From the NCBI GenBank assembly GCA_028279595.1, contig JANQNK010000001.1, positions 64,001-128,000 of the forward strand: a stretch of 64,000 bases of DNA. Direction: 5' to 3'. Below, piece by piece: positions 16,699 through 23,157 of the stretch. The stretch comes from Thermoplasmatota archaeon (GTDB lineage Archaea; Thermoplasmatota; JAKEGO01). Positions within the stretch are counted from its first letter, which is position 1, and each line of letters starts with the position of its first letter. Made by a program: the position numbers and the translations under genes. The notes under the pieces are model-generated. The model saw only the letters and a program-made list of their open reading frames with translations. It was not told the DNA's origin and made no database searches.

Positions 16699-16852
16699 GG
16701 AGGAGACGGTTCTCCTGTGTCCTCACTGTCTGAAGTCCAATCTGAAGGTCGTCGGCGGTTTCATGGGGACTCAATACCTCTGCAAGGATTGTGGGTATCA
16801 GGGTGCCTTGATCCTCGAGGTCGACGAGAAGGATGTTCCAGATCAGGATTGA
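16691..16852 (+). CDS. 53-aa zinc-ribbon protein (CPHC...CKDCGY)
   Basis: GAGGAG SD, host codon usage, two CxxC motifs. Not in ORF track. Confidence 0.8.
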   Translation: MSEEETVLLCPHCLKSNLKVVGGFMGTQYLCKDCGYQGALILEVDEKDVPDQD

Positions 16853-20432: not shown

Positions 20433-23157
20433 GGCCGGCCTTCTCTATAATCTCCTGAGCCTCGCCTTCAAGTTTATCCGCTAAGGGATCCTTACCTATG
20501 GAACGGTATAGTTCGATAGCAATCTGGATAAGTTCCACACCCCGGGCAGGCTCATCAGCCGCAATATTCATTTGACCATACTGGTAGTTCGCCTCTGCGA
20601 GGAGAACAGGAATATTCATACCGGTAATCTCATGAATCGTTGTCACAAATTGGTCTTCCGCCTCCTCCCAACGTTTTTCATTTGATAATACAACTGCAGA
20701 TTCAATCCCAATGTAAGCTAATCCAACCCGATCCCCTAATTTTGTTAAGATTTCTTTTGATTGAGACAGGCAATCCCATGCAGCTTGAAAATCACCTCTT
20801 CTAGTCATCACATCTGAGCTATTGAACAACGCCCAAGCCTTCAATTTTGGATAACCACTATTTTCTGCTACGGTAATTGATTTTTTCCAATAGTCTAATG
20901 CCTCATCAAACAATTCAGCATTATAATGGACAGTTCCAAGATTATTGTAAACCCTTCCTAAGGCATAACTCATTCCCATATCAGAGAACGCTTGAATTGC
21001 TGTGTTATAAAGCTCTATTGCTCGTTCCATCTCTGTAATTCTAATATTATTTGCCATATCAACTAAGATCTCACTTTCAAGTAACGAATCATTTGCATTC
21101 TGTGCCAACTCAAGTGCCTTTTCAAAATATTCAGTAGCTTCTTCGGACTCACCATTCCGCCAATGGACCTGTCCAATACTTCGATAAGCATCGCCAAGTA
21201 TAACTGAATCATCGATCTTCTCGGATATTTCGACACTCGCTTTGAAGTGGTCCAAGGCATCCTTCCAATTGGCCCTTTCATAATCGATCTTTCCGAGGTT
21301 CTTCCAGGCAGACCCAAGGACCGGTTGATTATCAGTTCCAGCCCACTTGATCGCCTCTTGGTTCTTCTCTTCTGCGGTATCCCAATTGTTCAATCCCATC
21401 TCAATGTCGGCGATCAACAGGAGGAAATCTGCCCTGAGCTTCTTCGGGACGTCCGTCGTTTCAATGTCAAGTGTATTCTTGAGGTCTTCAAGATAACCGC
21501 GAAGGATGAGTTCCCTTCCTCTCTCGACAGCAAGGTCAGCAGCCCTTCCCGTCTCACCGCCGCTCTTGTAATGGTATATCGCCTCCAGGATCGGCTCCTC
21601 TCCTTCAGCTGACAGGAAATATCCGGCCGCATTCAGATGCTGTCCACGTATCTCTTCCTTCGGTATTGTAGATATCAGGAACTCCCGGATCAGGTCCGAG
21701 ACCTTGTAACCAGAATAGGTGATCTCCTGAACCAGGATATGATTGATCAATTCCTCCAGGATGTCGTATTCCGAGGTTGATTCGATGAATGCCTCTGGAA
21801 GGACCGGTCTTCTGAAGATCGCCAGCTTGGTGATGAACTCCCTCTCGGCCGGCTCCAGCTGTGAAAGGATCTCGCTCTGAATGAACCTTCGCAACTCACT
21901 GGGCTTGACCAGGTCGTGCGGATCTCGCATGAGCTCGATCGAGAGGGGATGACCTCCAGTCGCCTCGTAGATCCTACTGATGTCGGGGACCTGCAGGTCC
22001 TTTGCCTCGAGGAGCAACCTGGTGCTATCGAGGTCCAGCCCCATCAATCGCTGCTCCTGAACCCTGCCTGAGATTATGTCCTTTTGCGTATAGAATGCCG
22101 GGATGTTCCTCGTCAATACGACGATGTTCGGGCCCCCGTATCTCTCAAAAACCTCCAGGAACAGGCTGAGAAGACCTCCCATCCGGTCCTCCGCCTTCTG
22201 CAGGTCGTCGAAGATCAACAATCCTTCCATGTCCTGGAAGTCCTTGGAGACCAGCTCGAAGATGTCATAGAGGTCGATCGTGATGTGCTCCTCCTCCACC
22301 GAGGAGAGCCTCTTCTTCGACCTCATGTATCTCCGGAGGTTATCCTTTCCAAGCTTGTGCAGGAATTCCGTAAGTGGTGTGAGAACAGCACGATAGGTGT
22401 CCCACTCATGGAACTGGTAATAGTAGATGTTCATCTCTGGCGAATACTTCTCGATGAGCTTGTTGGCGAGCGAGCTCTTGCCGATACCCGCGATCCCCTG
22501 GACCACGACGACTCTACATTCACCCTTGAGGTGAGTATCGATCGACTCGAGATCCTCCTCGCGGCCGAAGAAGTGCCTGGGAGCGGGCAAACCCTCGACA
22601 TGAACGATGAAGGGCCGAGCCTCGTCCTCCTCCCTTCTCTTGGCGTCCTCGAGGAGCATGTCTACATTGATCTCATCCGCAGATGGGATATTGACGTCCC
22701 TGATCAGGTCCAGGGCAGTGATGTCCCCACCCACATGGGTCATGATCTCTTCGAGGGTCCCCGAGATCTTCTCCTTCTTGAAGGTCGCATCGTAGTCCAT
22801 GTCCATGACCTGATCGAGCCTGGACCTGCCGAGCTCCAATCCCTTGTGGTTCAGGAAATAGACGTTCCGGCGCTTCTCAACACCGATGATATTCGCCTTC
22901 TTGGTTATCATGACGTCGAAGGTCTCGAACTCCTTCAGGGCCCTGGAGACGTGAGTCCACTTGATGCCCACAGCCTTCGCTATCCCTTCCTGAGTGACAT
23001 CGATAGGCATGGATTCAATGATCGTGTCCAGGGACTCCCATTCATGCCCCATGTACCTCTCGGCGGAGTAGTCCATGAGATGGATCAGGATCTTGTCCTT
23101 CACCGTGATCATGTCCGCATGGGGCACGATCGGCCCCATCTCCTCCGCTTCCGCCAT
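20425..23157 (-). CDS. wHTH - STAND NTPase - TPR protein, paralog B
   Basis: TQEGIAKAVGI..THVSRALKEF HTH, FFGRE, Walker A GIAGIGKS, Walker B LIFDDL, TGGHPLS, TPRs. Start chosen at ATG 23157. Confidence 0.9.
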   Translation of the reverse strand: MAEAEEMGPIVPHADMITVKDKILIHLMDYSAERYMGHEWESLDTIIESMPIDVTQEGIAKAVGIKWTHVSRALKEFETFDVMITKKANIIGVEKRRNVYFLNHKGLELGRSRLDQVMDMDYDATFKKEKISGTLEEIMTHVGGDITALDLIRDVNIPSADEINVDMLLEDAKRREEDEARPFIVHVEGLPAPRHFFGREEDLESIDTHLKGECRVVVVQGIAGIGKSSLANKLIEKYSPEMNIYYYQFHEWDTYRAVLTPLTEFLHKLGKDNLRRYMRSKKRLSSVEEEHITIDLYDIFELVSKDFQDMEGLLIFDDLQKAEDRMGGLLSLFLEVFERYGGPNIVVLTRNIPAFYTQKDIISGRVQEQRLMGLDLDSTRLLLEAKDLQVPDISRIYEATGGHPLSIELMRDPHDLVKPSELRRFIQSEILSQLEPAEREFITKLAIFRRPVLPEAFIESTSEYDILEELINHILVQEITYSGYKVSDLIREFLISTIPKEEIRGQHLNAAGYFLSAEGEEPILEAIYHYKSGGETGRAADLAVERGRELILRGYLEDLKNTLDIETTDVPKKLRADFLLLIADIEMGLNNWDTAEEKNQEAIKWAGTDNQPVLGSAWKNLGKIDYERANWKDALDHFKASVEISEKIDDSVILGDAYRSIGQVHWRNGESEEATEYFEKALELAQNANDSLLESEILVDMANNIRITEMERAIELYNTAIQAFSDMGMSYALGRVYNNLGTVHYNAELFDEALDYWKKSITVAENSGYPKLKAWALFNSSDVMTRRGDFQAAWDCLSQSKEILTKLGDRVGLAYIGIESAVVLSNEKRWEEAEDQFVTTIHEITGMNIPVLLAEANYQYGQMNIAADEPARGVELIQIAIELYRSIGKDPLADKLEGEAQEIIEKAGLT

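Follow-up and report, generated by a model that had tools for sequence, protein, structure and literature searches.

We analysed a five-gene locus in a 64-kb stretch of DNA from a Thermoplasmatota archaeon (contig JANQNK010000001.1 of assembly GCA_028279595.1; hereafter the window, to which all coordinates refer unless a contig is named). The locus encodes two STAND regulators, A and B, two small peptides, P1 and P2, and a secreted caspase-fold protein, C. It represents a conserved, apparently undescribed regulatory system built on a known receptor type, for which the mechanism given below is a proposal. An earlier note, made from the sequence alone, had not recognised the arrangement as a described system, and we likewise found no description of the cassette in the searched literature, subscription papers lying outside the search. 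Our favoured interpretation, held with slightly less than even confidence, is that the locus is one case of a Thermoplasmatota regulatory cassette in which a transcription factor with a tetratricopeptide repeat (TPR) sensor is coupled to a catalytically dead caspase-fold protein, with the peptides acting as cytoplasmic feedback on the STANDs. The genes are as follows.

16843..19440, minus strand: STAND A, 865 amino acids (aa); winged helix-turn-helix (wHTH), NOD carrying the Walker A, Walker B and GxP motifs, arm and TPR sensor, assigned by Pfam and a motif check.
19589..19651, plus strand: P1, a 20-aa basic leaderless peptide with a strong Shine-Dalgarno (SD) site.
19665..20360, plus strand: C, 231 aa; predicted secreted clan-CD (C13/legumain-like) pseudo-peptidase, very acidic, with a Ca-binding-type loop near the C-terminus.
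20367..20432, plus strand: P2, a 21-aa paralog of P1 and the final gene of P1-C-P2; its SD site overlaps the stop of C.
20425..23157, minus strand: STAND B, 910 aa; wHTH-NOD-arm-TPR, convergent on P2.

All five open reading frames (ORFs) lie at the places and on the strands where the earlier note had put them. P1 is divergent from A, with 148 nt between the two starts; 13 nt separate the stop of P1 from the start of C and 6 nt the stop of C from the start of P2, which is convergent on B and overlaps its stop by 8 nt. The arrangement recurs elsewhere: two peptides and two STANDs are common to the host genome (G000), the Joint Genome Institute (JGI) metagenome contig L029 and G002, a genome from another family of the same order. 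Contig L202 carries one peptide, C and one convergent STAND. Receptor and peptide counts are equal in all four loci that are complete: three sources have 2:2 and L202 has 1:1. The host's class comprises only three genomes, and homologs of C from the same phylum carry the label Thermoplasmatota.

A and B are clear paralogs, as had been claimed (26.7% identity over 821 aa, E 8e-82), and orthologs of A in the same context share 66% and 51% identity with it. Both proteins match AAA_16/ATPase_2 above the Pfam cut-off, TPR_12 and, weakly, an N-terminal HTH_Crp_2; their Walker A, Walker B and GxP motifs are intact, and neither has a membrane helix. The N-terminal domain also weakly matches the Lrs14 and Sta1 models, and taken alone it has no PDB match by sequence. 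The model of B (pLDDT 87) predicts a wHTH, a linker domain, a NOD, an arm and a long TPR superhelix, the winged helix being formed by two helices and a beta-hairpin at residues 56-102. The closest solved match of B is PH0952 (PDB 6MFV; sequence E 1e-20, fold E 3e-19). When the model was compared with known structures, the nearest folds of the sensor were the TPRs of LGN/Pins and Rap, which bind peptides in their grooves. A third wHTH-STAND-TPR paralog of 878 aa from the same clade lies on contig C11 (136389-139025), with neither C nor a peptide adjoining, and could act in trans. Codon composition is unusual in both regulators: third-position GC is 0.2-0.47 over A (16843-19440), and in B it is about 0.8 before dropping to 0.3-0.44 within the TPR half (20425-21500), against 0.7-0.84 in neighbouring genes. 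The same pattern is repeated in L029 and G002 and is not seen in the STAND of G002 contig C18; a sensor swap from an AT-rich pool or codon selection would be candidate explanations.

C has no Pfam match. Its AlphaFold model (pLDDT 90) has a caspase fold, with TM scores of 0.63-0.69 to metacaspase and legumain structures and 0.84 to a C13 protein of the Atlas, and its N-terminus carries a hydrophobic region typical of a cleavable signal, with no second membrane segment. Alignment with intact relatives places Asn110 at the catalytic His and Asp152 at the catalytic Cys, in agreement with the earlier description of C as a secreted pseudo-caspase. Of 60 near-complete copies, none has the Cys, 42 retain the His and 59 retain the Asp that precedes it. 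Judged by these alignments, C is a pseudo-peptidase, and the loss of the catalytic Cys is family-wide. The family is patchy, being found in the host's order, in G005, in G009 and in family f16, where 21 of 24 genomes have it, and a genome may contain as many as seven copies; about 50 Cys-less clusters were present in a 50%-identity library, and a search for related loci with the C alignments returned no match. Together these sequences make up an unannotated family: about 60 secreted, dead proteins of caspase fold from sediment Thermoplasmatota that are tied to TPR regulators and often head secreted-protein operons. Two variants of its setting were also recorded: four tandem pseudo-caspase genes before one STAND in G002 (L034:5479-10917), a GTTATAAC palindrome recurring in their spacers, and a Ras/Roc-type small GTPase gene divergent from a pseudo-caspase in G005 (L035:6692-7399).

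The two peptides, 20 and 21 aa long, are homologous, as had been suggested. Their ungapped alignment scores 50, a value reached by none of 19,984 random pairs of the genome's SD-preceded small ORFs (maximum 45). Each is preceded by an SD site, as is every ortholog found in G002, in L029 and on contigs L032 and L201; a counterpart of P2 is present in L029 and G002. In four P1 copies, each from its own source, the differences at eight codons are all synonymous and a ninth codon alters the residue, with 2/0/8 variable columns at the three codon positions. P1 and P2 therefore look translated and under protein-level selection. The alternative that they are an RNA or DNA motif was rejected, as the codon-position variation argues against it; an Rfam scan of the locus gave nothing real. 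A hydropathy scan bore out the statement that the peptides lack a hydrophobic signal region, finding no hydrophobic stretch or signal in any of them: they are hydrophilic and mostly basic, with negative mean hydropathy and a best 9-mer of 0.2-0.9, compared with 3.0 for the signal of C.

More distant copies were sought with a profile built without those of L202 and L208. The L202 peptide and L208, where two tandem peptides precede C, emerged as held-out homologs scoring above all 2,748 background small ORFs; the second L208 copy did not do so by itself. In L208, both peptides and the signal peptide of C share their first six residues on nearly identical start DNA, a hint in the sequence that the peptides and the C signal peptide have a common origin. 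In G009 and L210 the place of the peptide is taken by a conserved ORF of 41-42 aa, and contig overlap there gives the order STAND, receiver domain, ORF, C. It failed the held-out test against the P1/P2 profile, was rejected as a homolog and is therefore a positional analogue only. Degenerate peptide DNA patterns run against metagenome and genome collections gave five matches, all of them chance hits inside other frames.

The peptide did not prove to be a general companion of the STANDs. STANDs occur in 30 of 61 genomes, and over 401 genomes the peptide profile matched strongly only beside C, with no match in f16 or beside C-less STANDs. Cys-less C copies directly adjoin a wHTH-STAND-TPR or wHTH-TPR gene in 46 of 66 cases, and in four the contig ends upstream; among the other 16, three are members of an array of four copies that terminates at a STAND, and one, in G009, lies two genes from a STAND. 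None of the 21 Cys-intact relatives is beside such a gene, a contrast that is descriptive and not a test because the genomes are related. A quick tree places every C-linked STAND in one 14-row clade (SH-aLRT 99, with two long branches inside), and none of the remaining 45 STANDs has its own C within the flanks examined, mostly about 1.4 kb. Because the peptide profile hits only beside C and peptide-less cassettes exist, the conserved core is the regulator plus the pseudo-caspase, with the peptide a lineage-limited third part. The earlier interpretation is partly supported, the layout being conserved, the peptides apparently translated and the receptor and peptide numbers equal; a general tie of the peptide to the STANDs is not supported, and the constant partner is C.

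In f16, C is partnered by a wHTH-TPR protein of 440-475 aa, which has no NOD and the TPR of which is a homolog of the STAND sensor. Its gene lies on the same strand just upstream of C, with multiple paralogous pairs per genome, and the genes after C encode secreted proteins, PAS kinases or small Cys-rich proteins. A caspase-fold gene follows 49 of the 62 f16 wHTH-TPR regulators, divergent copies without a signal peptide included, and 11 of 22 loci that had been chosen for having no known C match. Signal-less, Cys-less caspase-fold genes with no Pfam match stand directly after f16 wHTH-TPR genes at L214:3825-4421 and on L216, L217, L219, L222 and L224, and several f16 proteins that lack both the signal peptide and the Ca loop are still homologous to C (hhalign 99.7%). 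The f16 operons also contain two groups of genes recorded here in their own right: unannotated 113-130-aa proteins with two CxxC pairs, encoded by the third gene of one cassette type (L038:6113-6487, L039:6322-6690, L040:2584-2958, L137:4147-4488), and secreted families of 430-500 aa with no Pfam match, encoded after C (L136:9830-11185, L046:4650-5960, L139:1928-3427).

These neighbourhoods raise the possibility that C itself is the partner of the regulator, as an anti-activator or ligand comparable to MalY with MalT. Signal-less C would act in the cytoplasm and signal-bearing C would be removed by export, so that the regulator reads the secretion state, and the peptides would be mimics or modulators of the C N-terminus. 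The constancy of C beside the regulators, the frequency with which it follows f16 wHTH-TPR genes, the signal-less homologs, the shared first residues in L208 and the mostly secreted cargo of the f16 operons all speak for this explanation, as does the co-variation of C and TPR distances (Mantel r 0.84). The last is, however, expected from co-duplication alone (TPR versus wHTH r 0.85), some C copies have no adjacent regulator and some regulators no C. In the present locus C has a cleavable signal and, in common with other exported proteins, strong acidity, so any contact with the regulator would be brief. We regard this explanation as rather unlikely. A related candidate, a remnant of the C signal peptide as the general ligand, was weakened by the signal-less C homologs beside f16 regulators.

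In the mechanism that we favour, A and/or B would bind the palindrome between A and P1 through their wHTH and control the P1-C-P2 transcript, which as a neighbour is their likely target; we consider this part probable. STANDs are described as autoinhibited until the sensor is engaged, whereupon they oligomerise (PMC6468293, PMC10427625). By analogy with MalT and PH0952, A and B would rest as ADP-bound autoinhibited monomers, and engagement of the arm/TPR sensor would bring about oligomerisation and DNA binding. P1 and P2, made from the controlled unit, would not leave the cytoplasm and would bind there to the STANDs as feedback ligands, most probably inhibitory ones, one per receptor after receptor duplication, a role that we put forward tentatively, at just under even chances. 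The exported output would be C, a module that binds peptides or proteins without cutting them and that in f16 heads operons of secreted proteins. P2 is last in the unit with nothing after it; an attenuator is thereby excluded, and whatever P2 does it must do as a product. The feedback role is favoured because the peptides have no export tag, their number tracks the STANDs and not the copies of C, and the nearest folds of the sensor bind peptides. Which peptide would pair with which receptor, P1 with A or P2 with B, was not readable from the sequence of so few loci. The fullest version of this idea is an archaeal signalling class that puts an NLR-like transcription factor under two gates, self-encoded peptides of 20 residues in the cytoplasm and a dead caspase whose membrane export is the signal; secreted-protein operons would thereby be tuned to the secretion state, and the peptides would have descended from the signal peptide of C. 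This version seems to us quite doubtful.

Three elements would serve this circuit in cis.

19457..19471, no strand: TATA-like A/T box between the divergent starts of A and P1; a promoter inferred from sequence.
19489..19509, no strand: TTAC-N5-GTAA, an inverted repeat whose arms extend further; a candidate operator close to the putative transcription start of P1.
20419..20438, no strand: GC hairpin spanning the stop of P2 and that of B; candidate terminator acting both ways.

The A/T box is found at the corresponding place in orthologous loci, and the hairpin is conserved in L029. The palindrome lies about 25 nt from the A/T box, on the P1 side; it recurs 97-101 nt upstream of P1 in three sources, with a half-site in a fourth. 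It is present once in the window, where 0.28 copies are expected by chance, with no genome-wide enrichment; such a copy would not be unusual by chance, and we therefore treat it as no more than a candidate operator. A scan for sigma-70 promoters gave nothing above chance, with a model unsuited to archaea.

Several observations weigh against the favoured mechanism. The palindrome has not been kept in G002, nor is it rare in statistical terms, and the neighbour counts for C were drawn from related genomes and are not independent. A peptide is present in a minority of cassettes; none was detectable in the STAND/TPR plus C cassettes of G005, L205 and G002 contig C18, the last with four C copies, or in any f16 cassette, and the peptides are therefore not needed for the core circuit. 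Where present, they always adjoin C on its own strand, which would fit action on C equally well. P1 is far more conserved than the TPR sensor of A, with 90% identity against 36-74%, or against 36-60% between the host genome and L201; where A as a whole is 51% identical P1 is still 90% identical, unlike fast co-diverging specificity pairs.

In an alternative, the STANDs would sense an unrelated ligand, either a metabolite or a peptide imported as a product of protein degradation, and would do no more than switch the unit on; the peptides would assist C or its export as a chaperone, a plug of the dead site or a translation coupler, with no STAND contact. That the peptide occurs only beside C, that the stop of P1 runs into the SD site of C and that basic peptides accompany a strongly acidic C are consistent with this, and a TPR sensor does not imply a peptide, the inducer of MalT being a sugar (PMC6468293). 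Against it, the peptides and mature C would be in different compartments, P2 follows C and so cannot couple its translation, and peptide number tracks the STANDs rather than C, as the four C copies without a peptide in G002 C18 illustrate. On balance we think this explanation unlikely.

The genes around the locus vary more between sources. A stand-alone PqqD-domain (PqqD/RRE-like) gene and a 53-aa zinc-ribbon ORF overlapping the stop of A (16291-16846) are syntenic only in L029 and L201. A small wHTH gene (DUF6293_C-like) divergent from B (23075-23644) encodes about 111 aa in L029; it is kept in JGI and not in G002. Low-GC (32-40%) inserted genes at 23819-27434 and 14852-15343, among them one for a 532-aa ORC/CDC6-like NTPase, are absent there in L029.

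A combination of a STAND with a caspase fold is reminiscent of immune systems, and together with the PqqD/RRE-like gene adjoining A and the flanking low-GC insertions it could be taken to indicate an antiviral STAND (Avs/NLR-like) or a locus for ribosomally synthesised and post-translationally modified peptides, with P1 and P2 as precursors. However, the effector position of A and B holds a wHTH DNA-binding domain and not the toxic N-terminal effector with defence-model match of an Avs protein, C is dead and exported, the PADLOC match is only to a generic TPR, and the locus keeps synteny together with housekeeping genes. The cassette is not accompanied by any modifying enzyme, and the G002, G005 and L202 loci have no PqqD. 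The FxSxx-COOH system likewise places an NTPase-TPR protein beside a short ribosomal peptide. A and B differ from its TPR protein (NCBIfam NF040586), scoring 32 bits against a cut-off of 300, and the cassette has no radical SAM or other maturase. A defence or modified-peptide locus is accordingly extremely improbable.

Among characterised proteins, PH0952 of Pyrococcus horikoshii is described as a protein with an ArsR-like domain at its N-terminus and a predicted role as a transcription factor (PMC6468293). A and B share with PH0952-type proteins the N-terminal wHTH, the NOD, the arm and the TPR sensor, and at the level of sequence and modelled fold they have the features of such STAND transcription factors. 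They differ in context, the available part of PMC6468293 describing no ligand, partner, target or neighbouring pseudo-peptidase or peptide gene for PH0952. The structure of this archaeal example is solved, and the same text gives no inducer; the cassette offers first candidate ligands, small and synthesizable, and a candidate operator for an archaeal NLR-like regulator. MalT is also a STAND transcription factor, has a TPR sensor and is run by separate proteins, the inhibitors MalY, Aes and MalK (PMC10427625, PMC6468293). It differs in its C-terminal LuxR domain, its sugar inducer and inhibitors that are active enzymes or a transporter, and A and B score far below the MalT model.

For C, the closest comparisons are with clan CD. 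C has the caspase-hemoglobinase fold of the clan without its His-Cys dyad, and it differs from peptidase family C13 (legumain-like), whose caspase fold it shares, in having no catalytic Cys, in being exported and in its tie to regulators. Bacterial pseudo-orthocaspases (PMC6426788), with Tyr or Ser replacements, are a different group. TPR-CHAT proteins, such as the anti-sigma factor DdvA (PMC11506125) and Csx29 of craspase, likewise bring a TPR and a caspase fold together, in the case of DdvA for transcription control, but there the two are fused, the His-Cys dyad is kept and DdvA spans the membrane, whereas the cassette consists of separate genes without the Cys.

The RRNPP/RRNPPA systems resemble the locus in that a TPR receptor gene adjoins a small peptide gene with a strong ribosome-binding site (PMC10075063, PMC12700828). 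Measured against the five RRNPP criteria (PMC10075063), the peptides are within the propeptide length of 10-100 aa, the receptors have TPRs and the two genes are adjacent (A-P1 divergent, P2-B convergent). The locus fails the other two, as the peptides are neither Sec-secreted nor short hydrophobic peptides for PptAB, and receptors of 865-910 aa with an ATPase exceed the 250-500 aa range, with RNPP_C at 17 bits, below 26.5. It differs further in its secreted neighbour, a folded 230-aa pseudo-enzyme, and in its archaeal host. An RRNPP-like quorum-sensing circuit would involve non-Sec export, trimming, re-import by an oligopeptide permease and TPR readout of cell density. It would draw on the shared gene order, on the leaderless RRNPP peptides that have been proposed (PMC12700828), on an oligopeptide-binding protein encoded in the genome and on the f16 receptors, which are of RRNPP size and HTH-TPR build. 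These receptors are, however, the ones without peptides, the loci have no conserved exporter, the peptides carry no signal or hydrophobic region, and a P1 nearly invariant in distant genomes would confer little signal specificity; we consider quorum sensing very unlikely. If, as the favoured mechanism proposes, the peptides gate the STANDs, the cassette would bring an NLR-like regulator under peptide control in archaea, a parallel to RRNPP built from different parts.

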